In this document: piece after piece, positions 33,117-62,439 of the stretch
Numbering within the stretch: position 1 is the first letter of the stretch
Layout of the letters: every line of letters begins with the position of its first letter
Source of the DNA: a virus
Taxonomy: Duplodnaviria; Caudoviricetes
DNA: 64,000 nt
Direction: 5' to 3' (one strand)
Virus record (IMG/VR): IMGVR_UViG_3300044633_001982
Notes under the pieces: model-generated
Databases searched by the model: none
What the model was told of the DNA's origin: nothing
What the model saw: the letters and a program-made list of their open reading frames with translations, nothing else
Made by a program: the position numbers and the translations under genes

Positions 33117-33140
33117 TTATAAATGGTTTATTTATAAATA

Positions 33141-37232: not shown

Positions 37233-37982
37233 TTATGATTCTTGCTCCGTTTTGATTATGTTATCATAAAGTATTTTATATTTTTTCATACTTGTTCTTA
37301 TTTCTTTTGTTGACAGATTTGTCATCTCTCTTAATGATAATAAAATTAAATTTTTGTTAAATTTATTATTATCGGATGTTTGAAAAATTTGTTTATAGTT
37401 TTCCAAAATATCACATAACGCAACCCCAAGTTTGTATTCATTTGTACCCTCGTCAAATTCATTAGATTTTTCTTTAACATTTTGTAACAATTTAATTAAA
37501 ATGTTTTCTTTATCATCTTCCTCATCATCTATATAATATGACATATTTGGGTTATTTTCTAAATCACTTGATATATCTTCATACGAAATTTTTCTATTTT
37601 GTTCTTTTTGGTCTTTTAAAATTTGACCCATTAAATAGTTTTTACAAATAGTTCCAAAATATGAATATGCCTTTTTTTCTTTTGACGGACTAAATTTTTC
37701 AATTTTAGTCATTAAAAAAGAATGAGTGTCGGTATGGATTTCATAAAAATCCATGTCTTTTCGATATAATTTATATCTTCTAATAATGGAAGATATCATT
37801 TTATCTAAAGGATGTCTTAAATAATCATTATATATCTTATTCTTTTCATCAAAAGTAGAAGCAGTTAGGAACATCCTAACTGCTAATTCTTCTCTTTGGT
37901 CAAAATAGTTTTCATTTTCAGATTTACTTTTTTTACCCTTTTGAATGATTATTGTTGTTTGTCCTGAATAATCATTGACCAT
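37233..37982 (-). CDS. Putative late-transcription sigma factor (T4 gp55-like)
   Basis: Sigma region-2-like LMTKIEKFSPSKEKKAYSYFGTICKNYLMGQILKDQKE, comparable to gp55 KFDP....FAYFT.I...FL.RI.KE. Confidence 0.55.
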   Translation of the reverse strand: MVNDYSGQTTIIIQKGKKSKSENENYFDQREELAVRMFLTASTFDEKNKIYNDYLRHPLDKMISSIIRRYKLYRKDMDFYEIHTDTHSFLMTKIEKFSPSKEKKAYSYFGTICKNYLMGQILKDQKEQNRKISYEDISSDLENNPNMSYYIDDEEDDKENILIKLLQNVKEKSNEFDEGTNEYKLGVALCDILENYKQIFQTSDNNKFNKNLILLSLREMTNLSTKEIRTSMKKYKILYDNIIKTEQES

Positions 37983-38788
37983 TAAACTTCTTGTGGTTCG
38001 TATTTTATTTGTCTGTCATCATTGAAAAAATATTCTTTTTTCGCAGAATTAATCCAAAATTTAACCTCATCTTCAGATAAAACATTGTCACCATTTTTGT
38101 AATTCCAAAAAATACCTCCATGTCTTAAATTAATATGTTTGTAACCTAATTTTGGGATTGTCATAATTTTTGAAGAATTATATGTTAAACGTAAGAATAA
38201 CTCATAAACAAATGTTAATTTTATTGAAGGCTTAAACCCTCCAAAATCAAGAAATGTACTTTTCTTAATCACCATTCCTGATGTTTGGAAATTTTGATAT
38301 GAGTGTAAGGTATCATTAGTTAGATACCCCATTTCTTGACTAAAATTAGATGCAAAAGTTGCCTCATTTGTGAATCCGGCAAACACACCCTTATCGTCAA
38401 CGTCAACTACGATTGGTAAAAAACAATCAACATCGTCATAAATTTCAGAATATTTTTTAACATTTTTAAACCAAATTTTAGAATACTCGTCATCAAACTC
38501 AAGAATTGATACCCATTTTGTTTTAGATTCTTTAATACCTAAATTAACTTGACTACAAAAATTAGGTTCTTCTGTGTACTCAATAAGTCTGATATTTAAA
38601 TCACCAAAGTCAAATGAGTTTAAATATTTAACTAAATTGTCTTCAAGTGTGTGAACTATAATTAGTTCAGATGGTTTAACTTCTTGGTTTTGTACAGATT
38701 GTATTGATTTTTCAAAAAAATCAGTAAAAAAAGATGCGATTGCGGATTTAATTGGTAATACTACCGTTAAGTCAAAATTGTTCTCCAT
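37982..38788 (-). CDS. Glycosyltransferase family 2
   Basis: LTVVLPI, QVNLGI, WVSILEFDD (DxD-like), YELFLRL. Confidence 0.8.
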   Translation of the reverse strand: MENNFDLTVVLPIKSAIASFFTDFFEKSIQSVQNQEVKPSELIIVHTLEDNLVKYLNSFDFGDLNIRLIEYTEEPNFCSQVNLGIKESKTKWVSILEFDDEYSKIWFKNVKKYSEIYDDVDCFLPIVVDVDDKGVFAGFTNEATFASNFSQEMGYLTNDTLHSYQNFQTSGMVIKKSTFLDFGGFKPSIKLTFVYELFLRLTYNSSKIMTIPKLGYKHINLRHGGIFWNYKNGDNVLSEDEVKFWINSAKKEYFFNDDRQIKYEPQEV

Positions 38789-38789
38789 A

Positions 38790-39848
38790 TTATGCTTCTA
38801 CTTTAAATTTATTAATTTGTTGTGAAAAATATTCTTCTCTTGAAGACAAATATTTTTTAAATAAGTCAACTATTGAATTATTGAACTTTTCAGTTGAACT
38901 ATATTTTTCTGCGGTAATAGTACCATTCTCATATAATTTTTCAGATATATTATCTTCTATCCAATTTTGGATAAAGTCAGCTACATAATCAACCAACTTA
39001 TCACTTTCTTTCACCCAAATACCATTATCTTGATTTAACCAATCAGGTACAATGTTAGGTACTATACCAATAACTGGACAATTTGAAGACATAGATTCGA
39101 TAGGATATGTTCCAAAAGAACTTTGAGGGTCTATCCATACTGATAAACAAGATTCTTTTAATGTGTTTGAAAATTCTTCTTCAGACAATGCTCTCATATC
39201 TCTAAACGATACCCATCTAAATTGAGGAAATTTCAAATAAAATTTCTTAATAAAATTAATTCCATCTCTTTGTTCTCTAGAATGTACCGCAACAATTGGT
39301 TTAGAAGGATATTTTGATGGACTAAATTTTTCAGATATAACTGGTTCAATAATATCGTATGACACATTTTTCATTATTGGTGCCACATAATTTTTTAACC
39401 ACTCACTTGTGATAATACATTTAGGAAACCCTAATGATGACCAAGATTGACCAGGCGATAAAGTTTCTGTAATCCAATCAGCCGATTGACATAATACAAT
39501 TTTAGCACATGGTAATTTTGTAATTTGAGGCATAACGTACCCAAAAATTTCAGGTATAATAATAAAATCTTCAGGAGAAATTTCAAGTTGTTGACCCTCA
39601 ACAGATGTGTGTGGAAGTTCCATAAACTCAGGACCTAACCATTCTGACACTCCAATGTAATCATTTTGTTCATGCAAGATAATTGGGTTAAATCCATTAT
39701 TTTTTAAAGTCATTGCCATTCTGTAAGTGTGGGCAACAGACGCTTTAGCATTACCTTTAGTGTCTTGAACAAAAAAATAAATTCTTGCGGTTTTATTTTT
39801 TAAATTTTCAACAGAGGTTTGTAATTTTTGTAAATTTGTTTGTTCCAT
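38790..39848 (-). CDS. GT-B fold glycosyltransferase (GT4-like)
   Basis: DFIIIPE, SFGTYPIESMSSNCPVIG (E.FG...EAM..G.PVI-like). Confidence 0.7.
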   Translation of the reverse strand: MEQTNLQKLQTSVENLKNKTARIYFFVQDTKGNAKASVAHTYRMAMTLKNNGFNPIILHEQNDYIGVSEWLGPEFMELPHTSVEGQQLEISPEDFIIIPEIFGYVMPQITKLPCAKIVLCQSADWITETLSPGQSWSSLGFPKCIITSEWLKNYVAPIMKNVSYDIIEPVISEKFSPSKYPSKPIVAVHSREQRDGINFIKKFYLKFPQFRWVSFRDMRALSEEEFSNTLKESCLSVWIDPQSSFGTYPIESMSSNCPVIGIVPNIVPDWLNQDNGIWVKESDKLVDYVADFIQNWIEDNISEKLYENGTITAEKYSSTEKFNNSIVDLFKKYLSSREEYFSQQINKFKVEA

Positions 39849-39860
39849 ATTTGTTTATTA

Positions 39861-40127
39861 TTAATATTTTTTTAATACTCCGATGTTAAGTAGAGTATTC
39901 CATGCAAGTTTATAAGGTAGACTAACTGCGCTTTTAGGACCAAGGGCCTCATCCGCGTCTTCTCTTTCGGTGATTAATACATCAATCATTGTTTTAATCA
40001 TTTCATATTTTACAACAGAAATATGTTGTTCAGTTTTACCCGACTCATCAATAGTCGGAGATAAATTTACTTGTGACTCAATCGTAGTGATGTCCAAGTA
40101 ATAGTGTTCATTAAATAAGGTCAACAT
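39861..40127 (-). CDS. Hypothetical protein
   Basis: 88-aa ORF. Confidence 0.7.
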   Translation of the reverse strand: MLTLFNEHYYLDITTIESQVNLSPTIDESGKTEQHISVVKYEMIKTMIDVLITEREDADEALGPKSAVSLPYKLAWNTLLNIGVLKKY

Positions 40128-40779
40128 ATTTTATTTTTTCAATTTTTTTAATTAAATCTTTTATTGTGTCAATTTCACAGTTCGCAATTACATCTTTATT
40201 ATATGAAGTTTTAAATTTTATACATTTTTCAGGATATAATTTAATTAATTCAGGGTTTGAAGTAATAATTACATCATAATTAGAAAGTTTTTTTTGTAAA
40301 TTGTTGTTATTATAAAAAATAACAGAATCAATTAAACATCCAAATTTAGATATAAAAAATAAAGATGCGGGTTTAGATTTACCCACGCATTTTGAAAATA
40401 TTGAAAAATCATATTTATTTTTTGTCGATTCAATTATTTCGTTTAAAGACACGAAAGTATCCATTTCAGTTGATGGTGAGTGACCAAAAATTTGCATTAC
40501 AAAATCTTCGTAAATAAAATTATAATAATCTTCTTCACTTGGAAATTTAAAATGATTTTCTAAATCCAAAGAGTTAACTGGTAAAATCATTTCATAAATA
40601 AATGAATCTTGATGTTCGTTAAGAACTGTATTCCCCGATTCATCTAAAGTGTACGTTTTAATTGGTTCCGAGAATTCGTCAGTTTGAGTTTCTAAATAAT
40701 TTTTTTCATATAATTGACTAATTTTTAAAATATTATCTCTTAAAACTCCGTCTAAATCAATACCAATTTTAGTTATCAT
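40111..40779 (-). CDS. HAD-family 5'(3')-deoxyribonucleotidase-like protein
   Basis: KIGIDLDGVLRD motif I; C-terminal KTSYNK..I. Confidence 0.65.
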   Translation of the reverse strand: MITKIGIDLDGVLRDNILKISQLYEKNYLETQTDEFSEPIKTYTLDESGNTVLNEHQDSFIYEMILPVNSLDLENHFKFPSEEDYYNFIYEDFVMQIFGHSPSTEMDTFVSLNEIIESTKNKYDFSIFSKCVGKSKPASLFFISKFGCLIDSVIFYNNNNLQKKLSNYDVIITSNPELIKLYPEKCIKFKTSYNKDVIANCEIDTIKDLIKKIEKIKYVDLI

Positions 40780-41506
40780 ATTTTTTTAAAATTTTAGAAA
40801 TTATTGGGTTACGGACAATATCTTCGTCTCCAAAAACATGGATTGCAATGTCATTAACATCTTTAAATTTATCTAAAGCGTCAAATAACCCCGAATGTTT
40901 CTTATCTTTATATCTATCAGTTTGCTCAATGTCACCTGAAATAAAAAACTTACTATTAAACCCTATACGAGTTAATAATAATTTCATTTGACCTGGAGAA
41001 GAATTTTGAGCCTCCTCAAAAATTAATATAGAATTATCTATATTCATTCCTCTCATATATGCCAATGCAAATACTTCAATTACCTCAATTTGTTTTAATT
41101 TTTCTCTATTTTCTTTACCAATAATTTTATTTAATAAATAAAAAGATGGAAAAATATAAGGGTCCAATTTTTCTTCTAAATTTCCAGGTAACGAACCTAA
41201 TTTTTCCTCAGCTTCAACAGCAGGTCTTACTATGATTATTTTTTCATATGGTGTCTTTGGGTCTTGTAATAAATCAACCGCACATTTCATTGCAATAAAA
41301 CTTTTACCAACACCAGCAGGACCTGAACAAATTGTAATTTGATTGTTAACTAATTTATCATAGTACTCTTCTTGTCCTTGTGACAAAAATTTATTTTTAG
41401 TCTTACCTTTAATGATTTGACTAATTTGTTCTTTCTTACTAATCTTTGATTTTACCTCTGTTTGAAAAGTTTGAGGTTCTTTAGTGGGTGTTTTTTTTCT
41501 AGTCAT
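40769..41506 (-). CDS. phoH: PhoH family ATPase
   Basis: GPAGVGKS, IVRPAVEAEEKLGSLPG, YMRGMNI, FEEAQN, MKLLLTRIG, GDIEQTD, DIVRNP. Confidence 0.95.
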   Translation of the reverse strand: MTRKKTPTKEPQTFQTEVKSKISKKEQISQIIKGKTKNKFLSQGQEEYYDKLVNNQITICSGPAGVGKSFIAMKCAVDLLQDPKTPYEKIIIVRPAVEAEEKLGSLPGNLEEKLDPYIFPSFYLLNKIIGKENREKLKQIEVIEVFALAYMRGMNIDNSILIFEEAQNSSPGQMKLLLTRIGFNSKFFISGDIEQTDRYKDKKHSGLFDALDKFKDVNDIAIHVFGDEDIVRNPIISKILKKYDN

Positions 41507-41521
41507 ATTTTTAATTTTAAA

Positions 41522-42520
41522 TTAATGGTTAACATTACCATCACTGTAATAAACAAACCAATAATTAATCATTTCATCTAACATTGTCTCAAATGTGTAA
41601 TCGTGAGACCATCCTGTTGATTTAATTAATTTAGATGAGTCTCCTTTTAAATCGTGTAGTTCTTCAGGCCTTAAAAATTTTTCGTCTTGTGCCACATATT
41701 CTTTATAGTCTAAACCTAATGATGTGAAAACATAATCACAAAGTTCTCTAACTGAATGTGAGATACCTGTGGCACAAACAAAATCATCAGGTTTGTCTAA
41801 TTGTAAAATTTCCCACATTGCTTTAACATAATCTTTGGCGTGTCCCCAATCTCGTGTTGCATCAAGATTACCCAATTTTAACTCATTAGATAGTCCTAAT
41901 TTAATCTTAACAGCTTCTTTACATACTTTATTGGTAACAAAGTTTGTTCCTCTTCTCGGTGATTCATGATTAAATAAAATTCCGTTTGAAATAAACATTC
42001 CGTAAGAATTTCTATAATTACGACAAATATTATAACTAAATACTTTGGAACAACCGTATGGTGATACAGGATTTAAAGGAGTAGTTTCTCTTTGAAACCC
42101 ATCTGAATCTATAGTGTTACCAAACATCTCAGATGATGACGCTTGATATATTTTGGTATTTGGTTTAATTAATTTAACCGCTTCTAATAAATTTAAAGTA
42201 CCTATACCTGTAACATTAGCGGTGTAAATTGGTTGGTCAAAAGATATTCTTACGTGGGATTGTGCTGCAAGATTGTAAATTTCATCCGGCATTACTTTTT
42301 GGATAATACTAATTAATGATGAAAGGTCAGTCATATCGGCGTAATGTAAAATTATTTTATCATATACGTTTTGTAATCTTGATGTTTGATTTTCGGAAAC
42401 TGAATTACGTTTAAGTGTTCCATGTACCTCATACCCCTTTTCTAATAAAAGTTCAGAAAGATATGACCCATCTTGACCATTAATACCTGTAATTAATGCA
42501 ATTTTTTTATCCATTTTCAT
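41522..42520 (-). CDS. gmd: GDP-mannose 4,6-dehydratase
   Basis: ALITGINGQDGSYL, YNLAAQSHV..SF, QASSSEMFG, SPYGCSK, LFNHESPRRG.NFVT.K, RDWGHAKDYV. Confidence 0.95.
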   Translation of the reverse strand: MKMDKKIALITGINGQDGSYLSELLLEKGYEVHGTLKRNSVSENQTSRLQNVYDKIILHYADMTDLSSLISIIQKVMPDEIYNLAAQSHVRISFDQPIYTANVTGIGTLNLLEAVKLIKPNTKIYQASSSEMFGNTIDSDGFQRETTPLNPVSPYGCSKVFSYNICRNYRNSYGMFISNGILFNHESPRRGTNFVTNKVCKEAVKIKLGLSNELKLGNLDATRDWGHAKDYVKAMWEILQLDKPDDFVCATGISHSVRELCDYVFTSLGLDYKEYVAQDEKFLRPEELHDLKGDSSKLIKSTGWSHDYTFETMLDEMINYWFVYYSDGNVNH

Positions 42521-43661
42521 TTATAATTTTACTTATTTTTTGAATTTCATTAATCGTTAAATCTTGATGATTTGGAATGTAAAATCCGTATTTATCAATT
42601 AATTCGCAATTTTTTAAATCAATTTTTCCGTAGTTTTCATACCACATTGGTTTATTTGACATGTTACCTGCAATAAGTGGTCTAACTTCAATATTATTTT
42701 TAATTAATTCATTAACAATTTTTTCTTTATTTTTGTTAACAATTGGTAACGCAAAATTTGATATAAAATTATTATCATCAATTTTTATATTTAAATCATT
42801 CACATTAATTAAATCTAAATAATTTTTAAAATTTTGATTTCTAATTAAACAATATTTGTCTAATTTATCAATAGCTCTAAGACCAATAAACGCTTGTAAA
42901 TCTGTAGACCGTAGATTGAACCCAGGTACGTAAAAGTTATATAAAGACGTGAAGTCATCTACAGAATATTTTTCACGTAATGATTTTTGTTTTTCTAACG
43001 GTAAATCTCTATCCCAACCGTGACTTCTCATCATTAATAATAAATGATAAAAATCTTCATCATTAGTATTAATAAACCCGCCTTCAATTGTACTTAAATG
43101 GTGTCCAAAATACATTGAAAAAAATGACGCAAACCCAAAAGAACCTAAATAATCGTTTTTATATTTTGACCCCATACTCTCACACACATCTTCAAATAGT
43201 ACAACGTCATATTTTTCACATAAACTTATAATTTTTTCCATGTCAGGAACTAAACCTAATGGAGATACTAAAATAAATGATGATGGGGACTCGGTTTTAA
43301 AAATATGTTCTAAGTGTTCTAAGTCACAAGACAAATCTTCTAAATTACAATCACACATAATTGGTTCCATACCAAGTAATATTGGAGAACTAACGTCTGT
43401 TGCCCAACTTAATGATGGAATTACTATTTTTTTATTTTTAATTTTTTTTGAATATAAAAAAGCGGCTAATGAAAGTAATATTGACGAGGACCCTGAATTA
43501 ACAAAAACCGAATATTTTGTCCCAATTTTTTTCGCCCATTTTTTTTCTAATTCAATAGTTAAATCACCTTTAGTTAACCTAGGTATCTCATCTTGAGATA
43601 ACCATTCTACAAGATACTTAATATCTTCTTTATTTATCGTATCACTTACTAATTTTATCAT
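42507..43661 (-). CDS. colD: GDP-4-keto-6-deoxy-D-mannose 3-dehydratase (ColD-type PLP enzyme)
   Basis: DegT-fold with His in place of the Schiff-base Lys (FSMYFGHHLSTIEGG); lacks the Cys cluster of E1/RfbH; flanked by gmd and an fcl-like gene. Confidence 0.8.
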   Translation of the reverse strand: MIKLVSDTINKEDIKYLVEWLSQDEIPRLTKGDLTIELEKKWAKKIGTKYSVFVNSGSSSILLSLAAFLYSKKIKNKKIVIPSLSWATDVSSPILLGMEPIMCDCNLEDLSCDLEHLEHIFKTESPSSFILVSPLGLVPDMEKIISLCEKYDVVLFEDVCESMGSKYKNDYLGSFGFASFFSMYFGHHLSTIEGGFINTNDEDFYHLLLMMRSHGWDRDLPLEKQKSLREKYSVDDFTSLYNFYVPGFNLRSTDLQAFIGLRAIDKLDKYCLIRNQNFKNYLDLINVNDLNIKIDDNNFISNFALPIVNKNKEKIVNELIKNNIEVRPLIAGNMSNKPMWYENYGKIDLKNCELIDKYGFYIPNHQDLTINEIQKISKIINENG

Positions 43662-44550
43662 AAACTTGTTTTATACCTTTTTCAAAAGGTAATGGACTAA
43701 AATTGGGAAGTAAATTATTTAACTTGTCTATTGACACATCTTTTCGGTATTGTCCATCAGGTTTTGTAGAATCAAAATTAATTTTAATATGTCCTAAGTT
43801 TAAAGAGTTTAACGAAATTTCAGCAATTTCTCTGATTGATAAATTTTCTTTATTTGCCACATTAAAACTTTCATATATATTCTTTGTTAAACATTCATTA
43901 ATAACCCAAGCTAAATCATCGGAATGCATAAATTGTCTTAATGGATTTCCTGAACCAAATAAAGTGATTTCACTTTGTGATAGTTTATTGGCTTGAATAA
44001 TCTTTTCAAGTAAGGCTGCGACAAAATGACTGTTTTCTCCCATTTTATCATTTTCACCGTATAAATTACAAGGTATTAAATATTGATAATTAGTACCATA
44101 TTGTTTGTTTAAAGAATCTATTTGGACTGCCAAACATCTTTTTGAATAACCGTAGGAAAAGTTAGTAATTGTTGGGGGACCTAAATGTAAATCAGTTTCA
44201 TTCATTGGATATTTTTCTACTGAATCAGGATAAATACACGTTGATAAAATTCCAATAAATTGAGTAACCCCAAATTTATATGAATACTCGACCATGTAAG
44301 TATTCATCTTAATATTTTCAATAAAATAATCGTATGGTTTTTTTATGTTGTCAATAATGCCCCCAACCTTAGCTGCTAAATGAACTATTTTGGTTGGTTT
44401 ATGTGTTTCAAACATACGTTTAACATCGTCTTCTTTAGTTAAATCATAATCTTTTGATGAAACGTATATTGAATGAGGTAGTAATTTTAAAAGTGATTTT
44501 CCTACCATTCCTGAACCACCAGTTATTAAAATTATTTCCTTATCTTTCAT
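43642..44550 (-). CDS. fcl: GDP-L-fucose synthase / GDP-colitose synthase (ColC-like) epimerase-reductase
   Basis: TGGSGMVG, HLAAKVGGI, LSTCIYP, YGYSKR, PCNLYGEND, SHFV, LRQFMHSDD, PDGQYRK. Confidence 0.9.
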   Translation of the reverse strand: MKDKEIILITGGSGMVGKSLLKLLPHSIYVSSKDYDLTKEDDVKRMFETHKPTKIVHLAAKVGGIIDNIKKPYDYFIENIKMNTYMVEYSYKFGVTQFIGILSTCIYPDSVEKYPMNETDLHLGPPTITNFSYGYSKRCLAVQIDSLNKQYGTNYQYLIPCNLYGENDKMGENSHFVAALLEKIIQANKLSQSEITLFGSGNPLRQFMHSDDLAWVINECLTKNIYESFNVANKENLSIREIAEISLNSLNLGHIKINFDSTKPDGQYRKDVSIDKLNNLLPNFSPLPFEKGIKQVYDKISK

Positions 44551-45211: not shown

Positions 45212-45510
45212 TTTTTATCAAAAAAAATATTGTCGTTTATTGCTTTATCGTCAATAAAAATATCGGCATTTAATTTAATTCCAACTCTTAATTTATGATA
45301 GTTAACTCCCCAATCTTTTAATTGGGAAGATGTAATATCCTCCCAATTAATTCCGGTTGTTGAACCTCTTGCAGTGTCTATAAGAATGGTATTTCCATCA
45401 TTATAAAGTTTATTTACTAAATTAATTCTTTCATGAAATGGTTTTGCGTTTAAATAATCACCGTCTGTATTGGTACAAAGAGTACCATCTAAATCAAAAC
45501 AATAAATCAT
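45208..45510 (-). CDS. Minimal HAD phosphatase (capsule-biosynthesis type)
   Basis: YCFDLDGTLC, TARG, K..ADIFIDDKA. Confidence 0.85.
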   Translation of the reverse strand: MIYCFDLDGTLCTNTDGDYLNAKPFHERINLVNKLYNDGNTILIDTARGSTTGINWEDITSSQLKDWGVNYHKLRVGIKLNADIFIDDKAINDNIFFDKK

Positions 45511-46347: not shown

Positions 46348-46370
46348 TTTATTTGTTTTTTTTATTTTTA

Positions 46371-46949: not shown

Positions 46950-46953
46950 TTTT

Positions 46954-51822: not shown

Positions 51823-52603
51823 TTATAATAAATTCAGTACCATCACAATTAAATTCACCTAACTCCCAATCTTGAAAAAAGATAATATTTTTAAAACCAA
51901 CCGACAACAACAAATTTTTTATTTGTTCTTTATTATAAATTTTTAAAATTACCGACGAATTACTCTTTTTATTTTCATCCCTTGAAATAAATGTTTTATC
52001 CCACGTTAAAAAATTATTTGAGTCGTCAAATTTACAATCCCAAAGAGAATATTGCCATGGGTCAGGATAATCAAACTCATCCCAAATTTTACCACCCATT
52101 TTAATAGAATCTAAAATTTTTTTACACCCATCGAGTTCAATTATTATCTTACCATTTTTTTTCAAAGTTTCATAAACATCCTTTAATAATTTAATTTCAA
52201 AACCTTCGGATATTGGTTCACAAAACTGAAAAGATAAATCTGACATATAACATAAATCAATATTAGAAAAATTATATTTTTTTAAATTTAAAAAATTATC
52301 ACATATATTTTTAACATTTTCTATGTTTAAATCACGTCTCCAATTTTCCGCAAAATTAAATCTGTCTTCACTTATTTCAAATCCGTACCCAAAATTGAGT
52401 AAATTTTTTAAATTCAAATTATATAATAATTTTGAATTACCTGAACCCAATTCTAAAATATTAATTTTTTCTTTAAAAAAAGAATTTATAAATTTTAAAT
52501 TTTTTTCACAATCGTTTAATTTATTTTGACGATATTTTTCCATTTCGTTTTTATCGTAAAATATTTCATACCCATTATAAGCTGTTAAATTTTTGTGTGA
52601 CAT
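51809..52603 (-). CDS. Class I SAM-dependent methyltransferase
   Basis: ILELGSGNSK, GFEIS, LKKNGKIIIE. Confidence 0.75.
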   Translation of the reverse strand: MSHKNLTAYNGYEIFYDKNEMEKYRQNKLNDCEKNLKFINSFFKEKINILELGSGNSKLLYNLNLKNLLNFGYGFEISEDRFNFAENWRRDLNIENVKNICDNFLNLKKYNFSNIDLCYMSDLSFQFCEPISEGFEIKLLKDVYETLKKNGKIIIELDGCKKILDSIKMGGKIWDEFDYPDPWQYSLWDCKFDDSNNFLTWDKTFISRDENKKSNSSVILKIYNKEQIKNLLLSVGFKNIIFFQDWELGEFNCDGTEFIIIAEK

Positions 52604-52606
52604 TTT

Positions 52607-53344
52607 TTATAAGATATTAGAAGTATTAAAAATTTTCTTTAAATGAGACATATCACTTAGATTTTGAATCTCGACATTTATTTTTTCGGCACTTTGTTTA
52701 ATTATTTCAAAATCGGTTAATATCTCATCAAGATGAGGATTAAAACTTGAGTAGTTGGTAAAGTCTGGTGAAACATACCCTAATGAGTAGTTTAACTCAA
52801 CTCCACAAATATATATTTTTTTACACCCAAGTAATATCGCTAAAGCCAACATGTGTACCGCAACTGTACTACCTGTACTATATATTTTTTCGTAATTTGT
52901 ATAATTTTTTAATAATTCTTGTATTGTTAAAAATTTTGGATTTAAATTATGACATTTATTTGGACAATTAGTACAAGTTTCTCCATTAAAATGTCTTTGG
53001 TCATATCTAAAGTAGTTCGTGTCTACATTTTCAACTATCCATTCCCAAGGGGTGGTGTCAACAGAATCGGCATGTACAACAGTAGTATTTGGAAATTTTT
53101 TAAAAGTTTCTACCATTGAATGTATAGTTTGGTGGGAATTTGCAAAAACCCAATAATTAGGGACTATTTTTGTCATAATGTTAATTTCATTACAACAAAT
53201 TTTAATGTAATCATTATTACTTTCTAAAATGTTTAAATAATTCCCCAAAGAAGGTCCTGTACCACAGATTATTGCCGTTTTACCAACTTCTTTATTAATT
53301 AATTTTGAAATATCTTGATTAGTCATTGTAGTATAATAATCCAT
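52607..53344 (-). CDS. Maf/DUF115-like putative nonulosonic-acid transferase
   Basis: TAIICGTGPSL, CCNE, STVAVHMLALAILLGCKKIYICGVEL. Confidence 0.7.
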   Translation of the reverse strand: MDYYTTMTNQDISKLINKEVGKTAIICGTGPSLGNYLNILESNNDYIKICCNEINIMTKIVPNYWVFANSHQTIHSMVETFKKFPNTTVVHADSVDTTPWEWIVENVDTNYFRYDQRHFNGETCTNCPNKCHNLNPKFLTIQELLKNYTNYEKIYSTGSTVAVHMLALAILLGCKKIYICGVELNYSLGYVSPDFTNYSSFNPHLDEILTDFEIIKQSAEKINVEIQNLSDMSHLKKIFNTSNIL

Positions 53345-54149
53345 TATTAAATTTTACATTTATTTTTTTCCACTCATTTTCATACACATTATTAAATTCT
53401 TTTTCACCTCTTGGGCCAAACCAAATATTAGGGACAAAAACTTTGTTATCTTTATTTTGGTTTAAAAAAGACCCCCACCAAGAAAAAGATGAGTTTGACA
53501 TTATATTATTTTTACAAAGACTAATCATCCATAGGTCTTCATAATCGTCATTATCTTCAACAAATATAACTTTATCAGATTTAATATTATTTTTTACCCA
53601 AGTAAAATCATCTGAAAAAATAAAAAATGTTTCAGTTTCAGGTAAAAGACTCATACAGTGTTTAATATATGAAATATCTATAACTGGTAGTATATCAGAT
53701 ATTGTTAGATAATCACCTCTTCTAATATGAATTGATGTCGTATTATTAGATAATAATTGAGGGTATTTTTTAAATATTTTTTCTTTAAATTCTTCAGAAG
53801 GTAAGAATAAATCAATTATTTCTTTGTCATACCCTAAAAAATTTTTACTACTTTGAAAATACCCATTAAACCCAACTGACTCGTCCCAATTAAAATTCAA
53901 GTTAGGTTCATTCCAACTATACTCACTAACTATTTTTTTAACATTTATATTATTAACAAAATTAATTTTTTTAAAAATATTATTAATATAATGTGTGGGT
54001 TGTTTTGCTTTACCCATTGGGGTGTATGCTTGTGGTAAAAAAACCGATGGTATTTTATTTTTTAACCCCTGAGAATACGAATGTGCAATTTGAAACATTT
54101 GGTTACCTAAACCTCCTTGTAACAATGCGGTAGATATTATATTATCCAT
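53319..54149 (-). CDS. GT11 alpha-1,2-fucosyl/colitosyltransferase
   Basis: LQGGLGNQMFQ, GYFQS, SIHIRRGDY, FSDD, NSSFSWWG. Confidence 0.92.
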   Translation of the reverse strand: MDNIISTALLQGGLGNQMFQIAHSYSQGLKNKIPSVFLPQAYTPMGKAKQPTHYINNIFKKINFVNNINVKKIVSEYSWNEPNLNFNWDESVGFNGYFQSSKNFLGYDKEIIDLFLPSEEFKEKIFKKYPQLLSNNTTSIHIRRGDYLTISDILPVIDISYIKHCMSLLPETETFFIFSDDFTWVKNNIKSDKVIFVEDNDDYEDLWMISLCKNNIMSNSSFSWWGSFLNQNKDNKVFVPNIWFGPRGEKEFNNVYENEWKKINVKFNNGLLYYND

Positions 54150-54957
54150 TAGTTTTTAATTTATTATAAATTATTGAGTCAGGTAAAATGTAAGATTTAG
54201 ATTTTTCGTAATTTTCAATTACAAAAGGTAACATTTTTTCATATAAATCTTTATTACAACTTGTTAAAATATCTTCTATTTCTTCTATTTTGTCAAAACA
54301 AATCATTCCTTTAGTGTTAAAAAAATCACCAATCGATGGACACCCCCAATAAATCGGGATAGTCCCAGTTGTAAAACAGTCTATTAATTTTTCAGTAAAC
54401 CAGTAATCTCTTTTACAGTTTTCAATTACTATTGAAAATCTATAATCTTTTAAACCTTCTATTTTTCTATCAATTGGTGAATAACCTCTACCATAAACAT
54501 CCATTTTATCTTTATATCTATCTATAACCAAATGACGTAATTGATGTCCGTCAGTTTGTCTTTTATTTGAAGATATAATTGATATGTCTTTTGATTTTTT
54601 ATAAACTTTTTGTTGTTCAGGGTCAATCCAACAACATCCAAAAGGTACTAATTCAAAATTCTTATTTAAATCAAGTAATGATTTTTCATGTGTAAAAACT
54701 TTATTAAAATTTTGGTGATTATTTAAAATATAGTTGTAGGTATTTGAGTTAATACACATTGGTTCAATTAACCAAGCATAGTTTTTTTCATAATTATCTA
54801 TTTTTTCATGTCCTAACATGAAATCTGTATATACACATGGAATACTTGAGTCTAAATTTGACCTATCCCAAAAAAACCTATTGTCTTTTTGAAAATCGCT
54901 ACAATAACCCAATACGCTATGTGAAAAAGTAATATCTTTTAAATTTATTTTATCCAT
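54142..54957 (-). CDS. GT10-like fucosyltransferase
   Basis: YRFSIVIEN...WFTEKLIDCF..GTIPIYWG. Confidence 0.8.
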   Translation of the reverse strand: MDKINLKDITFSHSVLGYCSDFQKDNRFFWDRSNLDSSIPCVYTDFMLGHEKIDNYEKNYAWLIEPMCINSNTYNYILNNHQNFNKVFTHEKSLLDLNKNFELVPFGCCWIDPEQQKVYKKSKDISIISSNKRQTDGHQLRHLVIDRYKDKMDVYGRGYSPIDRKIEGLKDYRFSIVIENCKRDYWFTEKLIDCFTTGTIPIYWGCPSIGDFFNTKGMICFDKIEEIEDILTSCNKDLYEKMLPFVIENYEKSKSYILPDSIIYNKLKTNG

Positions 54958-54959
54958 AA

Positions 54960-55607
54960 TTATTTTTTTAACAAATAGTCATAATTTACAATGTGTTCTT
55001 GTATGTCAGAATAATCTTGAATTTGCCAAGTTAAATGAGGTCTAATACAATAACAATTTAATTTTGGTTGTAATAAAGATAAATAAAAATCGGCAGCTAC
55101 TGATGGTTTAAAAGATACTTTTTTATCTAATACCTTATTAACTTTATCTTCTAAAAAATCTATAATTGTGTCGTATGATTTTGAATTAACTGCATACATT
55201 TGTAATGCATAAGTGTGAGACAATTTAAAAATGTTTTCGGAAATTTGTTTAATTGGACCTTGGTGGTTTCCACCAAAATATATAAGGTCCCAATCTTCAG
55301 GAATCTGAGGAATAATTGATTCAAATTTTTCAGAAATATTTGAATCAAATTCAACGTCATCTTCGTATATTAAAACGTTCTTTAAATTTAACTCTTTCGC
55401 CATTTTAATCACATTTAAATGAGATATGGTACCCCCTAATTCAGATGAATGAGGATATGGTAATGTTAAAGTTTTACCATCAAATGCGGAATACCTTTCA
55501 GCAACAATTCCAAAATCATTAAATTTTTTAGTAATAGTCGTCCATCTGTCTTGTCTTCTGTCTAAATTTATACAAAAGGATTTGGAAAAAAAATTGTTTA
55601 AAATCAT
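54960..55607 (-). CDS. GT25 glycosyltransferase
   Basis: FCINLDRRQDRW, RYSAFDG, G...SH, VLIYEDD, WDLIYFG. Confidence 0.88.
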   Translation of the reverse strand: MILNNFFSKSFCINLDRRQDRWTTITKKFNDFGIVAERYSAFDGKTLTLPYPHSSELGGTISHLNVIKMAKELNLKNVLIYEDDVEFDSNISEKFESIIPQIPEDWDLIYFGGNHQGPIKQISENIFKLSHTYALQMYAVNSKSYDTIIDFLEDKVNKVLDKKVSFKPSVAADFYLSLLQPKLNCYCIRPHLTWQIQDYSDIQEHIVNYDYLLKK

Positions 55608-57241
55608 AAATTAATTATGTCTATATAATTTTGTTTTATTTTTTTAGTAACATTTAATGAATCAAATCTTTCCACATCTAAAGGTGGCTCATGTAATTTT
55701 TTATCGATTATGTTACCTAAATTATCAATGTTGTATATCCAACCACTTTTACCGCACATCCAACCTTCAATTGTAGTTCTACCTAATAAAATACCAGCAG
55801 TTTCGGAACAATCTTTAACATATTTTTGTACATCAATCGTACTGTCAAAATATTTTACATGAGACTCATTTAAAATTGAATTTAAATAGTTTGATTGATT
55901 TTTACCTACAATATATAATGTTTTATTATTTTCTTTAGTGGTTTTAATTAAATCAAAAATGGTTTGTTTTCGTATCTCGTCAATTGTCCCAACAAATAAA
56001 GTGTAACCTAAATCTTTTGTATTTTTAATATTAAATTTTTCAGAATTAATTGGGTTGTAAATAACTTCAACAAGGTTTTCGGGTACGTTAAAATTTTTAA
56101 CAATACACTCTTTAATCTCAGGTCGAATTGCTATGTATTTTTTAACACTCTCATTAATTATTGGATTTTCTAAAGAAATGACTTCAGAATGTATAGTATA
56201 TATTTTTTTAATATCGGGATATAAATTATTTAACGTATTTACAACAGGTTGGTGTTGGTAATGAATAATATCAAACGTTTCATTTGAGATTCTATAATAT
56301 TTGTTTTTTTCAGTTGTTATTATCCCATTTGGTGTAGACATCCTCCAAATTCCGTCCCCCATTTTAAACCCTGGAGGTTCTGTAATATTATAAACTTTAA
56401 TCCCTTCTTTTTTAGCAATTTCAGATAATCTACCGACAGTTTCATAAGCAACAATAGAAACATCTACATTCATTTTTAGTAAATTTTTGGATAGTTCGTA
56501 AACGTACATTTCAGAACCTGTAAATTCTCTAAAAAATAAACAACCAATTAAAACTTTTAATTTGTCATTTTCGGTTACTTTTATTTTTGAAGGTAAGTTG
56601 TTTTTATACTTTTCAGAAAAAATTTTCCTATTTTCTTCCCATTTTTCATTTGTCATTCCTATTGACTTATGGGTGATTCTAATATTTGTAATTACTCCAA
56701 TCTTACACCCACTTAAATAATTTTTAAAACAAAAATTGACATCATAAAAATGGAATCCATCAACTGATTCATCAAAAGAGTCTTTAATTTTTTGTTTATT
56801 TAAACACATAAACAAACCGTCAACAAGTACAACTTCTTTAACATTGTTTTGTAAAGAATCCGAATACCTTGATTCCCATTTTTTACCATCATGTTCATGA
56901 TTCACAATACCAAACATTTTAGACCTATCTTCCCACCACATACCACTAATAGGTAAACTTGTTGTTCCTGCAACTCCTAAAATTGAAAACTCATTATTTC
57001 TATCAAAAACTTTTTTAAGTTTTTCCCCCCAATTTTTTGTATCAAAATAAATGTCATCATGACACAATACTACAATATCATTAGTTGACTCAGATAATAT
57101 TTCGTTATAAACAACTGAAAGATTTTTTTCACCATTGTTAACTTTTTCAATAATCTGTATTTTTGGGTTACCACATGATTTTTTTAAATATTCCTGAAAT
57201 TCAGGATTTGATTTTCTTGTACTATATCCAATTGTTATCAT
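55604..57241 (-). CDS. Two-domain glycosyltransferase (GT2-like + GT-B)
   Basis: YNE...DIVVLCHDD, LVDGLFM, FHFYDV (N-terminal); GSEMYVYELS, VIYNPIN, GRTTIEGWMCG (C-terminal). Confidence 0.8.
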   Translation of the reverse strand: MITIGYSTRKSNPEFQEYLKKSCGNPKIQIIEKVNNGEKNLSVVYNEILSESTNDIVVLCHDDIYFDTKNWGEKLKKVFDRNNEFSILGVAGTTSLPISGMWWEDRSKMFGIVNHEHDGKKWESRYSDSLQNNVKEVVLVDGLFMCLNKQKIKDSFDESVDGFHFYDVNFCFKNYLSGCKIGVITNIRITHKSIGMTNEKWEENRKIFSEKYKNNLPSKIKVTENDKLKVLIGCLFFREFTGSEMYVYELSKNLLKMNVDVSIVAYETVGRLSEIAKKEGIKVYNITEPPGFKMGDGIWRMSTPNGIITTEKNKYYRISNETFDIIHYQHQPVVNTLNNLYPDIKKIYTIHSEVISLENPIINESVKKYIAIRPEIKECIVKNFNVPENLVEVIYNPINSEKFNIKNTKDLGYTLFVGTIDEIRKQTIFDLIKTTKENNKTLYIVGKNQSNYLNSILNESHVKYFDSTIDVQKYVKDCSETAGILLGRTTIEGWMCGKSGWIYNIDNLGNIIDKKLHEPPLDVERFDSLNVTKKIKQNYIDIINL

Positions 57242-57837
57242 ATTCCTGTACTTCCAAATCCGTTTTCACCACGGTCTTTATTTTCAACTTTACTTACTTT
57301 AACCAAATTAACATTTCTACCGGGATAACATTTGGATAAAACCGCTTGAGCAATTTTCATACCTTTAGTAATTTTAAATGATTCTTTATTTGTATTAAAC
57401 ACTATTACTTGTACCTCACCAGTGTACCCCTCATCAACAGTACCTGGACTATTAAGAACCATTAACCCTTGTTTAAGAGCTAATCCACTTTTTGACCTAA
57501 CCTGAATTTCAAAACCTTCAGGTATCTCAAATCTAATGCCCGTAGGTATTAAAGCTCTTCCAAAAGCTTCAATTGAAATTTCCTCTGTTGAGTATAAATC
57601 AAACCCACTGTCGGATACGTAATTATACTTTAAATCTAAATCAGTTTCCGATGAATAAGGTAAGTCAAGTTTTTTCATAGACTCTATCATTTTGTCTTCA
57701 AAGTCTTTTAAATCAATACCATAATCATCCGAAATTTGTTTATATAAATTCAAATTAGATTCTTTATCTAAAGATTCTTGAATTTTTTTCATTTCCTCAT
57801 ATAAATCAAAATCCTCGTCGTTAATATCTAAATTCAT
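57238..57837 (-). CDS. dut: dUTPase
   Basis: SGFDL, IPTGI, RSKSG, NSPGTVDEGYTGE, KIAQ, RGENGFGSTG. Confidence 0.95.
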   Translation of the reverse strand: MNLDINDEDFDLYEEMKKIQESLDKESNLNLYKQISDDYGIDLKDFEDKMIESMKKLDLPYSSETDLDLKYNYVSDSGFDLYSTEEISIEAFGRALIPTGIRFEIPEGFEIQVRSKSGLALKQGLMVLNSPGTVDEGYTGEVQVIVFNTNKESFKITKGMKIAQAVLSKCYPGRNVNLVKVSKVENKDRGENGFGSTGI

Positions 57838-58535
57838 TTTAAATTTTTAATTTTTTTAACAACATTTATTAAAACCTCAACGTCTTTTTCACAGTAATCT
57901 TGTATCTCTTGGTATTTGTTTTCATTCCAAAAATAATAGTGTACTTTATTACCCGTAACTTCCATATTTTTAGATGATTCAATTCCTAAAGATATACACA
58001 TCAATTCTAAAGAACTGATTGCTCCAAATTGACCAAATTGCCAAATATCTTTAGTGTCAACCGCTTTAACTTCCCAAGGTTTTGTGTCGGGAGTTGGTAA
58101 AATTGATGATGGTAATATACCATTAATTATCATTCTTTTTCCTAACACAGGAATATCAAAATTCTTAATATTATGTCCACAAAGCACAAACCCTAATTTA
58201 TCAACACGATTTAATAGTGTGTTGACATCTTTTAATAATTGAGTTTCATCTGAATTAAAAAAAGTTTGTTTTTTAACTGTATTATCAGGTCCAATAAACC
58301 CTACTGAGACACAAATTATTTTACAAAATTCAGGTACTAAAGCGGCTCGGTTAACAAATATATCTTCTTTTGATTTATCTGAATCTTCAGTAAATCTTTT
58401 TTGAAACCAATCTAAATAATTATCAAATTGATAACAAAGAGACGGGTAGTCTCTTTTGAAAGTATCGTAATTACTTGAAACCCCAACAGTCTCAATATCT
58501 ATAAATAATAGTTTGTTTAATGGGTACTGTATCAT
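57834..58535 (-). CDS. DnaQ-like 3'-5' exonuclease (PolB-exo-related)
   Basis: LFIDIET, GHNIKNFDIP, YCEKDV. Confidence 0.85.
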   Translation of the reverse strand: MIQYPLNKLLFIDIETVGVSSNYDTFKRDYPSLCYQFDNYLDWFQKRFTEDSDKSKEDIFVNRAALVPEFCKIICVSVGFIGPDNTVKKQTFFNSDETQLLKDVNTLLNRVDKLGFVLCGHNIKNFDIPVLGKRMIINGILPSSILPTPDTKPWEVKAVDTKDIWQFGQFGAISSLELMCISLGIESSKNMEVTGNKVHYYFWNENKYQEIQDYCEKDVEVLINVVKKIKNLK

Positions 58536-58538
58536 AAA

Positions 58539-59756
58539 TTATTTTAATAAACTGAAATAAAGTTCTTTTCTATCTTTGGTTACGTTATTTAAATCGTATT
58601 TTTTTGAGACTGTTTCATACAATCTTTCACCTAAATCAACAATCATATTTGGATTATTGACTAATTTTTTAATGTTTTTTGACCAATCGGAGTGATTACG
58701 AGTTTCCTCAATTAATAAAGCGTTTCCGTCAACAAACTCACCATGATTAAGAGCGTGTTTTAAATCAACAGTGTAAGGTCCAACATTAGATGCAATTAAC
58801 GCTCTTTTGTAAAACCCCGCTTCAATAACTTTTAACTGTGATTTAACTTTATTAAAAATATGGTTTTTAATTGGGGCTAATGATATATCAAATTTTGAAT
58901 AATTTTTGGCGTAAGATGTTGTAGGTAATGTCCAAACTCTTCGGTACCCTTCATTTAATTCATTAAAGTAAGGTTCATCTTTAAATTTCATTAAATGTGA
59001 TTTATACTCAGGACTAATAATTTTATAATTATTTGTGAATATTTCTTCGTACTTTACCCATACTGTTTCTTCAGGTTTAATTGGTCGAACTTTCTTTTCA
59101 CCAGTCTCTTTGTTATACTCAGTCATTGACCCTCTAGTGTCAAATCCACATAAAACATATTGTAGTTTATCATTTAAAGAACCTAACTTATTTATCATCC
59201 CATCAAGTAAATTAAGGTCATGTAAATGTGAAGAACCCCCTAACCACCCAACTCTAATTCTGTCAGACTCAATTGATGGTTCCTTAAATTGAGGTTCATT
59301 AGGGTCAATTGCATTTGGTAATACTGACACATTTTTATTTATTTTAGACACCTCGTGTGCAAATATTGGGGTTGTAGTAGTGACATGTGACGCCACCTTT
59401 ATTTGTGCAATAATTCTCTCATTTATTTTTTCTTCAACAATGATTGAATGTAATGGATGTTCTTTGGTAGGTAACCAATAGTCATCTATGTCACAAATTG
59501 TAACCACCCCATCAGAATTTAGTTTATTAATTAATTCTAATGATTTATCATAATCAGTTCCTATTAATCTGTGAAAATGAACAATATCGTATTTTTTCCA
59601 AAATCTATCGTCATTGTAATCCACATCAAATTCAATGTCAACGTGTACTTCGTTTGGATATAATTTTTGTAAACATACGTGTGGGTCAACCGACCTAAAT
59701 TTACCAACACCACTTCTATCTGAAGGTAAAACTAAAATATTAATTTTTTTACTCAT
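58539..59756 (-). CDS. GT-B fold glycosyltransferase
   Basis: CDIDDYW, VLPNAID, RVGWLGG, DISLAP, KSQLKVIEAG; start moved to ATG 59756. Confidence 0.8.
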   Translation of the reverse strand: MSKKINILVLPSDRSGVGKFRSVDPHVCLQKLYPNEVHVDIEFDVDYNDDRFWKKYDIVHFHRLIGTDYDKSLELINKLNSDGVVTICDIDDYWLPTKEHPLHSIIVEEKINERIIAQIKVASHVTTTTPIFAHEVSKINKNVSVLPNAIDPNEPQFKEPSIESDRIRVGWLGGSSHLHDLNLLDGMINKLGSLNDKLQYVLCGFDTRGSMTEYNKETGEKKVRPIKPEETVWVKYEEIFTNNYKIISPEYKSHLMKFKDEPYFNELNEGYRRVWTLPTTSYAKNYSKFDISLAPIKNHIFNKVKSQLKVIEAGFYKRALIASNVGPYTVDLKHALNHGEFVDGNALLIEETRNHSDWSKNIKKLVNNPNMIVDLGERLYETVSKKYDLNNVTKDRKELYFSLLK

Positions 59757-62426: not shown

Positions 62427-62439
62427 AATGTTTTTACCT

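Follow-up and report, generated by a model that had tools for sequence, protein, structure and literature searches.

The DNA analyzed here is the 64,000-nucleotide stretch of IMG/VR virus record IMGVR_UViG_3300044633_001982 (Duplodnaviria; Caudoviricetes), referred to below as the window, and the subject of this work is a sugar-gene island at positions 37982-59756. The island consists of 27 open reading frames (ORFs), all on the minus strand, that overlap or are separated by gaps of no more than 35 nt (Table 1); its last ORF is taken from the ATG at 59756, the longest frame beginning with a GTG at 59795. Nine of the ORFs encode glycosyltransferase (GT)-like proteins, and three non-sugar genes (for PhoH, a dUTPase, and a PolB-exo-like exonuclease) are interspersed with them. 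These features agree with an earlier, sequence-only reading of the same DNA, which had described a tightly packed, one-strand run of ∼22 kb with nine GT-like genes. That reading treated the run as a single island and missed its division into a frame and a cassette. The sugar system also continues past 37982-59756 and beyond the window end. A transmembrane scan found no polytopic membrane protein among the ORFs of at least 50 aa across the whole 64 kb, and the island enzymes are soluble.

The presence of a large terminase (TerL), a portal, a major head protein (MCP), and PhoH in the window shows that this DNA comes from a tailed phage, as had been proposed. Endolysin-like proteins are also encoded, and the G+C content is ∼28% across the 64 kb. 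TerL is <30% identical to every entry among 50,697 GenBank phage records, the closest cultured phages identified via TerL and a 249-aa ORF infect Flavobacterium and Microcystis (25-29% identity only), and a megablast search of the island against GenBank phages returned zero matches. Relatives in IMG/VR number in the hundreds (73-98% identity); among them are contigs of 223, 242, 294, and 321 kb, of which the largest has terminal repeats and is rated 100% complete. The phage is uncultured and belongs to a lineage of freshwater jumbo phages with genomes of ∼290-320 kb, which is, based on gene content, probably the group called moraphages.

Three comparison sets were used. Two relatives, G001 and G002, were fetched whole and compared with every window protein; gene counts were obtained from 80 further loci, each centered on a homologue of the GT4-like gene at the right end of the island (confirmed homologues of this gene are present on 181 contigs); and profile searches covered five large relatives, two of them 100% complete, together with 14 control prokaryote genomes. 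In addition, the right edge of the window was extended by 7.5 kb by using public JGI contigs that are 99.97-100% identical to it; contig L191 overlaps the window by 5.7 kb at 99.98% identity.

A conserved frame and a hypervariable cassette

Gene order in the window is kept in G001 and G002. The left side of the island in both relatives contains the GT2, GT-B, 88-aa, HAD-like, PhoH, and Gmd genes (45-88% identity), with Gmd absent from this position in most other relatives. The right side contains part of the two-domain GT, the dUTPase, the exonuclease, the GT4-like GT, and the small genes that lead up to a Thr/Pro-rich protein starting at 62472 (26-78% identity). Between these sides, the 42.5-55.6-kb region of the window has no counterpart in G001 or G002 except one ∼30%-identical DegT-family gene and a 41%-identical GT11 in G001. 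The corresponding region of G001 encodes a GT17, two GT11 proteins, a GT92/GT2_4 protein, a DUF5672 protein, a GT2, a methyltransferase, and a DegT-family protein, and that of G002 encodes a GT2_5+GT2 fusion, a GT4, a UDP-GlcNAc 2-epimerase, several GT2 proteins, a DegT fragment, and an epimerase.

When the 80 further loci were analyzed, the genes from the middle of the island were found to be patchily distributed (GT11 in 21, GT10 in 16, GT25 in 11, ColD in 8, and the ColC-like gene in 5), and the two-domain GT was present at ≥50% coverage in 38 loci. A single distant match each was found for the HAD, short-chain dehydrogenase/reductase (SDR), and cytidylyltransferase genes (28-53% identity), and there was none in any of the 80 for the NeuB, GmhA-like, TIM-barrel, VOC, aminotransferase, or MptE-like genes or for either methyltransferase gene. 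Where both anchors were in reach, the interval between the dUTPase and PhoH genes was 186 bp to 8.2 kb in the relatives and ∼15.7 kb in the window phage; 20 cassettes hold 71 protein clusters, 50 of which are singletons. Based on the synteny, presence counts, and interval lengths in these relatives, we conclude that the 22-kb island consists of a hypervariable accessory cassette set within a lineage-conserved frame. Among the relatives compared, the nine-gene ulosonate block is, as judged from the same homology searches, a private acquisition of the window phage.

Additional observations were made on the frame. In one IMG/VR relative, L183, only 186 bp separate the dUTPase and PhoH homologues, so the cassette is gone and the conserved GTs are retained. 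The conserved block between the island and the Thr/Pro-rich protein includes a gene for a stand-alone WYL-domain protein of 127 aa (60419-60802; PF13280, E 8e-6), which is found in 71 of the 80 relatives. The 352-aa GT-B protein of the left side matches PDB 8xsg, the glucoside-glucosyltransferase AmGGT (E 1e-10). The AlphaFold2 model of the GT4-like protein (pLDDT 92) has a GT4-like GT-B fold, with GlgM, MshA, BshA, and PglA as the top fold matches. Homologues of the GT4-like protein that are 27% identical occur, two per genome, in ∼130 records of Phapecoctavirus/Justusliebigvirus-type (phAPEC8-like) coliphages, and a 35%-identical one occurs in 735-kb megaphage records; all of these are annotated at most as "glycosyltransferase."

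Table 1. Positions of island genes and other features, with the evidence for each assignment (E, E value; cut-off, the model's own score threshold; L191, coordinates on the contig that extends the window)
Feature	Position	Strand	Evidence
GT2 glycosyltransferase, left frame	37982..38788	-	PF00535 E 1.2e-7, 32 bits; 63-69% identical in G001/G002
GT-B glycosyltransferase, lineage-conserved	38790..39848	-	PF00534 weak, 19.6 bits, below cut-off; 58-60% identical in G001/G002
Conserved ORF, 88 aa	39861..40127	-	no family match; 49% identical in relatives
HAD-like, conserved	40111..40779	-	weak NT5C match, PF06941 E 0.003, below cut-off; 45-50% identical in relatives
PhoH-like ATPase, left cassette anchor	40769..41506	-	PF02562 E 1.5e-62; conserved
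GDP-mannose 4,6-dehydratase (Gmd)	41522..42520	-	PF16363 E 2.6e-118; TIGR01472 396 bits
ColD-like GDP-4-keto-6-deoxymannose 3-dehydratase (DegT family)	42507..43661	-	PDB 2gms (ColD) E 1.5e-58
GDP-fucose synthase / ColC-like epimerase-reductase	43642..44550	-	NF047922 189 bits, below cut-off; PDB GDP-L-fucose synthase E 8e-61
GT2 glycosyltransferase, unique to cassette	44540..45211	-	PF00535 E 3e-8, 34 bits; singleton cluster
Small HAD phosphatase, EcbF/BcbF capsule-phosphatase family	45208..45510	-	TIGR01689 E 8e-6; PDB 9iqw E 5e-9
NeuB-family ulosonate synthase without SAF domain	45511..46350	-	PF03102 E 1e-59; PDB 6ncs E 2e-30
GmhA-like SIS sugar-phosphate isomerase	46371..46949	-	NF010546/TIGR00441 E 1e-50 to 2e-51, below cut-offs
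S-Adenosylmethionine (SAM) methyltransferase	46954..47841	-	PF13489 E 2e-26
SDR	47835..48653	-	PF13561 E 2e-36
Xylose-isomerase-like TIM-barrel, sugar isomerase/epimerase type	48650..49420	-	PF01261 E 2e-9
Glyoxalase/VOC-fold protein	49417..49830	-	PF00903 E 1.4e-8
Class-III pyridoxal phosphate aminotransferase	49806..51143	-	PF00202 E 9e-88
CMP-ulosonate cytidylyltransferase, PseF/KdsB-like	51136..51822	-	PF02348 E 4e-23; TIGR03584 E 4e-29
SAM methyltransferase	51809..52603	-	PF13847 E 1e-7
MptE-like/CST-I-like putative CMP-ulosonate transferase, core only	52607..53344	-	PF01973 E 2.7e-16, 60 bits; PF06002 E 3e-4
GT11 (alpha-1,2-fucosyl/colitosyl-transferase family)	53319..54149	-	PF01531 E 2e-26, 93 bits
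GT10 (alpha-1,3/4-fucosyltransferase family)	54142..54957	-	PF00852 E 1.5e-6, 28 bits vs cut-off 23.9
GT25	54960..55607	-	PF01755 E 4e-13, 50 bits
Two-domain GT: GT-A Glyco_tranf_2_5 + GT4-type GT-B (Glyco_transf_4)	55604..57241	-	PF13712 E 2.5e-27; PF13439 E 9e-12
dUTPase, right cassette anchor	57238..57837	-	PF00692 E 4e-25; in 77/80 relatives
PolB-exo-like 3'-5' exonuclease	57834..58535	-	PF10108 E 2e-11; in 72/80 relatives
GT4-like GT-B glycosyltransferase, 405 aa	58539..59756	-	phrog_7162 E 3e-44; in 80/80 relatives (loci centered on this gene)
Candidate acceptor, 519 aa, two (TPTQ)n blocks	62472..64000, runs 31 nt past window	+	sequence
Second candidate acceptor, 520 aa, between terminase and portal	15885..17447	+	sequence and STP scan
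GT60-family gene, 414 aa	L191:3950-5194	opposite to island	PF11397 218.9 bits vs cut-off 21, E 1.7e-64
T4-type late-promoter motif TATAAATA	62439-62446, 4954-4961, 28103-28110, 33129-33136, 27873-27880		0-34 nt before starts 62472, 4996, 28127, 33116, 27872
TerL	14127-15875		
Portal	17483-19297		
MCP	23427-25220		
ClpA-like ATPase	6939-8981		

Donor-sugar pathways

The proposal that the island encodes GDP-deoxyhexose synthesis proved correct, and the pathway can be refined to the ColD (colitose) type by its PDB match and active-site residue. The best PDB match of the DegT-family protein is ColD (perosamine synthase follows at E 7e-27), and its sequence GHHLSTIEGG aligns with SHHIATMEGG of ColD, which contains the active-site His that replaces the usual Schiff-base Lys; this position reads N in the H188N entry 3b8x. 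The ColD-like gene is flanked by Gmd and an Fcl-like gene, and ColC and Fcl are indistinguishable for the latter by the searches made. The predicted products of these three enzymes are GDP-L-colitose and, possibly, GDP-L-fucose. Among GenBank phages, the best homologue of the ColD-like protein is 36% identical. In an attempt to infer the host, the nearest cellular homologues of Gmd were found in metagenome-assembled genomes of both Acidobacteriota and Bacteroidota (72-76% identity).

The companion proposal of CMP-ulosonate synthesis stood in part, as a NeuB-family synthase and a CMP-transferase are present but none of the canonical UDP-GlcNAc-processing enzymes (NeuC, PseB/C/H/G, or LegB/C/H/G) is encoded in the island. 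The NeuB-family protein scores below both equivalog cut-offs, and its C-terminal SAF part is missing. Its longest frame has a GTG start, extends to 46434, and shares 64 nt with the upstream SIS gene; translation more likely begins with the ATG at 46350 (MKKTYIIAEIG...), which matches the point where homology to NeuB structures begins. In place of the enzymes for Neu5Ac, Pse, or Leg, the island encodes the GmhA-like isomerase, small HAD phosphatase, SDR, TIM-barrel, and VOC proteins, the class-III aminotransferase, and two methyltransferases. Synthesis of Kdo or KDN proceeds through an isomerase, a synthase that acts on a sugar phosphate, a phosphatase, and a cytidylyltransferase. By analogy with these routes, we read the set as one that would make a further-modified (methylated or aminated) KDN/Kdo-like 3-deoxy-ulosonic acid.

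The 245-aa protein at 52607..53344 had been assigned a Maf-like role in Ser/Thr glycosylation, and this assignment is not upheld. The protein shares with Maf flagellin GTs the MptE-like PF01973 core, located at residues 5-187, and lacks the flanking flagellin-binding domains of the ∼600-aa, multidomain Maf architecture. Its sole solved match is to a motif of the CST-I sialyltransferase (PDB 2p2v), and it has fragment-only matches to WaaZ and PseD (the PseD model, of 640 positions, at E 4e-6). No homologue was found in GenBank phages or in the 80 relatives. The protein resembles a sialyltransferase/KDO-transferase core rather than Maf; capping of a glycan with the ulosonate is a likelier role for it than glycosylation of Ser/Thr.

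Part of the ulosonate set has a counterpart in the unannotated marine kyanovirus AG-345-L05 (L195, MH319754.1), where the region at 9421-13130 encodes SDR (50% identity), NeuB (59%), and small HAD (45%) proteins in the same order as in the window. This virus also carries distant GT11 and GT25 genes. The SDR-NeuB-HAD genes are a ulosonate sub-module common to marine and freshwater phages.

A GT60-family gene, candidate acceptors, and priming or export genes

The GT60-family gene lies ∼2.5 kb past the window end and ∼8 kb from the last GT gene of the island. Its profile, PF11397, matches in five of five large relatives and in none of the 14 control prokaryotes, and full-length homologues with 46-48% identity are present in four isolated jumbo phages. 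In G001, the PF11397 gene sits with GT10, GT7-like, and HtrL genes between genes for very large Ser/Thr/Gly-rich, fibre-like proteins. Characterized GT60 members transfer GlcNAc to polypeptides, at Thr or hydroxyproline, and the enzyme of the window phage is by family membership a predicted protein-directed, initiating polypeptide GlcNAc-transferase. The product of ORF334 in Xanthomonas jumbo phage XacN1 is a 48%-identical, full-length homologue of this enzyme. The virion proteome of XacN1 includes at least two glycoproteins, which its authors suggest are made by the phage's own GTs (PMC5852040). Unlike the window phage, XacN1 was reported with two GTs only and with no donor-sugar pathways or variable cassette (PMC5852040).

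Between the island and the GT60-family gene is the gene for the first candidate acceptor, whose two (TPTQ)n blocks together span ∼200 residues. At least 64 of the 80 relatives have a conserved version of the N-terminal ∼155 aa of this protein at the corresponding position, and the remainder is variable. A conserved N terminus joined to a variable C terminus is a tail-fibre-like pattern, which is suggestive of such a function and not proof of it. The gene is followed in its own genome by those for a 195-aa protein, a 551-aa protein, the 414-aa GT60-family enzyme, a 280-aa ORF, a second GT10 with a FucT N-domain, and two more ORFs; the ORFs without assignment after the GT60-family gene are of 225, 246, and 280 aa. 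For the 551-aa protein, a protein atlas gave a weak ConA/LamG lead (score 0.92, ∼110 shared features). The second candidate acceptor has a Thr/Pro tract at aa 45-105 followed by many short GN(I/L)S..L-type repeats rich in Ser, Thr, Asn, and Gly; it has no Pfam match, and neither G001 nor G002 has a homologue at that position. The relatives encode four or five proteins with (TPTx)n tracts per genome, one of which adjoins the GT60 gene in G002.

Copies of TATAAATA, a T4-type late-promoter motif, number 29 in the window, an enrichment over the 15.7 expected that 0 of 100 shuffles reached, and one copy is 25 nt upstream of the gene for the 62472 protein.

The domains of these fibre-like proteins are arranged differently in G001. 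There, a single 735-aa protein (110692-112899) combines the conserved N-terminal ∼155-aa domain with a Cys-rich domain that has a weak ConA/LamG-like lead. The window phage instead joins (TPTQ)n tracts to the N-terminal domain (62472-62940) and encodes the ConA/LamG-like part on its own, in an ORF of 551 aa (L191:5231-6886). The two arrangements are a case of module shuffling among fibre-like genes.

Like O-antigen and capsule loci, the island combines nucleotide-sugar genes with several GTs and varies between relatives. Profiles for priming transferases (PF02397, Bac_transf; PF00953, WecA/MraY type), the Wzx flippase (PF01943), and Wzy/ligase proteins including WaaL (PF04932) had no match in the five large relatives, and the window contains no polytopic ORF; ABC exporter families were not searched as profiles. 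As positive controls, each primer, Wzx, and Wzy profile matches in 9-13 of the 14 control genomes. From the lack of priming and export genes in the window (transmembrane scan) and in the relatives, including the two that are 100% complete, we conclude that this is not a captured export locus and that neither lipid-carrier nor export machinery is part of the system. This supports the view of the sequence-only reading, which had suggested a profile search for flippase and polymerase genes as a check.

Possible targets of the glycan

We give an even chance to the proposal that the island is the main part of a phage-encoded, cytoplasmic glycan-assembly system whose product decorates the phage's own Thr/Pro-rich, fibre-like proteins. 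According to this proposal, the GT60-family enzyme would put the first sugar on Thr of the Thr/Pro stalks in the cytoplasm, and the conserved GTs would then build an inner glycan. The cassette enzymes would add strain-specific outer sugars, with colitose and/or fucose transferred by the GT11 and GT10 proteins and a methylated or aminated KDN/Kdo-like ulosonic acid by the MptE-like transferase; each phage would therefore display its own "glycotype" on its virion appendages. The island and the GT60 cluster would feed one pathway, and the Thr/Pro-rich proteins would be glycosylated parts of the virion. The sequence-only reading had similarly described cytoplasmic protein O-glycosylation that coats the virion. 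The soluble enzymes, the absence of priming and export genes, the candidate (TPTQ)n acceptors, the GT60-family gene, and the precedent of XacN1 support this description in part; the virion as the end point, and a coat as opposed to a glycan on a few fibre-like proteins, are what we infer. A more specific version, which we regard as tentative, is mucin-type O-glycosylation, in which a eukaryote-like GT60 enzyme would start glycans on the (TPTQ)n stalks of virion fibres, the conserved GTs would extend them, and the horizontally exchangeable cassette would cap them with epitopes particular to each strain, in this phage Lewis/H-like colitose or fucose and a previously undescribed modified ulosonic acid.

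Several points weigh against a glycan on fibre-like proteins. The sequence available from the phage's own genome covered ∼72 kb (window plus right extension). All that links the island to the GT60 cluster is proximity and shared lineage conservation. The Thr/Pro-rich proteins have no PHROG or Pfam matches, a protein atlas lookup of the N-terminal domain of the 62472 protein returned nothing, and an AlphaFold2 model of its N-terminal 250 aa (36 homologues) was unusable (pLDDT 38). Thr/Pro tracts are also common as unglycosylated linkers. The window scan found no TATAAATA before the sugar-island genes. The fold of the GT4-like protein does not fix its acceptor, and its list of fold matches includes the T4 alpha-glucosyltransferase at rank 44. 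Finally, bacterial GT10, GT11, and GT25 enzymes act mostly on lipid-linked glycans of lipopolysaccharide (LPS) or lipooligosaccharide (LOS), and colitose is known from O-antigens.

These last associations, which are classical for colitose and all three GT families, also favor the strongest rival, remodeling of the host envelope. In this alternative, the enzymes would modify undecaprenyl-linked LPS, capsule, or general O-glycan intermediates of the host on the inner side of its membrane, and a host flippase and ligase would export the products; the surface of the infected cell would change, which could, for example, block superinfection or keep progeny from sticking to debris. The only solved relative of the 352-aa GT-B protein uses glycoside acceptors, O-antigen loci likewise look like hypervariable cassettes, and the marine kyanovirus has the SDR-NeuB-HAD genes plus distant GT11 and GT25 genes. 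Similar sets of GT10, GT11, GT25, GT2, and sugar-nucleotide enzymes in cyanophages S-SCSM2R, S-SCSM1, and P-SSM2 have been so interpreted (PMC12801897). However, genes for a primer transferase, flippase, polymerase, and ligase are absent from the window and the complete relatives, so remodeling would depend wholly on host enzymes that accept foreign glycans. Also against it are a lineage-conserved enzyme of a family whose characterized members modify polypeptides and that is absent from the 14 control prokaryotes, the many Thr/Pro tracts in phage proteins, and the glycoproteins in XacN1 virions. On balance, we consider envelope remodeling possible but less likely than a glycan on the fibre-like proteins.

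It is less probable still that the frame and the cassette serve different targets, the GT4-like GT acting on DNA, nucleotides, or a small molecule and the cassette and GT60 cluster on a protein glycan. The GT4-like GT, exonuclease, and dUTPase form a near-universal trio that is present even without the cassette (as in L183, with its 186-bp gap), GT4-like folds include small-molecule GTs (MshA and BshA) and the T4 enzyme, and the distant homologues in phAPEC8-like coliphages have no assigned function. However, the GT4-like gene is tightly packed in an operon with the other GT genes, the relatives have a true thymidylate synthase only and no hydroxymethylase, and nothing specific indicates DNA.

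The single ThyA-family gene of the relatives encodes a canonical thymidylate synthase (E 1e-76), and therefore no hydroxymethyl-pyrimidine route to DNA glycosylation is seen. Hydroxymethyl-pyrimidines are the usual handle for this modification. There is consequently very little to recommend hypermodification of DNA, in which the whole set would build an oligosaccharide on phage DNA bases as protection against restriction: some phages are known to have GTs that attach a variety of glycans to DNA (cited in PMC12619734) and a dUTPase and exonuclease are inside the island, but the relatives have no dCMP/dUMP hydroxymethylase, nine GTs with fucose/colitose and CMP-ulosonate pathways far exceed known DNA glycans, and the GT60-family and mucin-like protein genes are close by. 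The thymidylate synthase ORFs of the relatives are 369-385 aa long (G001 3879-4964, G006 269134-270246, and G007 157188-158261), and their profile match is split into two or three stretches, suggesting that ∼50-100 residues are inserted into a ThyA that is canonical in other respects.

Of the known systems, the "LPS / cell-wall" clusters of P-SSM2, S-SCSM1, and S-SCSM2R have a target that is usually read as the host envelope (PMC12801897). They resemble the island in belonging to aquatic myovirus-type phages and in their dozen or so soluble GTs (GT2, GT10, GT11, and GT25), sugar-nucleotide enzymes, and Kdo-type genes. The window phage is of a different lineage, as its TerL shows, and the available part of PMC12801897 does not mention for the cyanophage clusters a conserved frame with a swappable middle, a ColD-type pathway, or a GT60 enzyme with (TPTQ)n proteins. 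Moraphages are freshwater jumbo phages of 200-307 kb with PhoH, a ClpA-like ATPase, T4-like structural genes, and four GT orthogroups in their core (Perez-Hernandez et al. 2025, Arch Virol; PMC12619734). Compared by description, the window and its 294-321-kb relatives likewise have PhoH, a ClpA-like ATPase, T4-like structural genes, and four conserved GTs. The moraphage paper treats the GTs as core genes of undecided function and describes no variable cassette, sugar pathways, GT60-family gene, or Thr/Pro-rich proteins (PMC12619734).

In mycobacteriophages, phage GTs glycosylate structural proteins in the cytoplasm (Freeman et al. 2023, cited in PMC12619734); there, two to four GTs encoded beside the capsid and tail-tube genes modify the C termini of the capsid and tail-tube proteins. 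In the window phage, nine or more GTs accompanied by dedicated donor pathways are encoded 13 kb from the MCP gene, and mucin-like stalks on fibre-like proteins are the candidate acceptors. The glycans of Megavirinae fibrils and of chloroviruses consist of rare bacterial-type sugars that are placed on virion proteins by virus-encoded enzymes, independently of the endoplasmic reticulum, Golgi, and export, and the gene sets differ between clades. These clusters belong to eukaryotic viruses, and their likeness to the island is one of general description. Virus-encoded glycosylation of this kind includes the capsid glycans of chlorovirus PBCV-1 (as cited in PMC5852040). In the island as in the Escherichia coli O55 and O111 colitose loci (gmd-colD-colC; 2gms/3gr9), a GT11-family gene stands beside a Gmd-ColD-ColC-like trio that bears the His signature of ColD; unlike these loci, the island is phage-borne, all of its products are soluble, and it is without wzx, wzy, wzz, or a primer transferase.

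Phage clusters with GT2, GT10, GT11, and GT25 genes (cyanophages), virion glycosylation (mycobacteriophages), and clade-specific clusters (giant viruses) are thus already known. A literature search found no prior description of a conserved frame with a swappable cassette in a jumbo phage, of a ColD-type colitose pathway in a phage, of this non-canonical ulosonate cassette, or of a GT60-family enzyme paired with mucin-like phage proteins. To our knowledge, experimental demonstrations that phage enzymes glycosylate virions are limited to mycobacteriophages, XacN1 providing hints, and the large sugar-gene clusters of aquatic phages have stood unassigned for some twenty years. The present lineage is an unusually testable case because it combines a GT60 initiator, mucin-like acceptors, self-sufficient donor pathways, the absence of export machinery, and relatives with differing or absent cassettes. 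If the glycan is on fibres, variable glycotypes would matter for host recognition, for how virus particles aggregate and are grazed in lakes, and for the acquisition of rare-sugar pathways by phages; if it is of the mucin type, related phages would differ in glycotype as bacteria do in O-serotype. Candidate enzymes for work with colitose and with a non-canonical ulosonic acid can also be drawn from the cassette.

Two minor observations were made outside the sugar genes. A candidate gp55-like late sigma factor at 37233-37982 was not supported by PHROGs, Pfam, PDB, or annotated phages. Directly upstream of the MCP gene, a 551-aa protein (21745-23400) has an extremely acidic stretch of ∼330 residues at its start, with long Asp/Glu runs, followed by a basic Lys/Gly-rich stretch; only its C-terminal ∼210 aa are conserved in relatives, and it looks like a scaffold or internal head protein.

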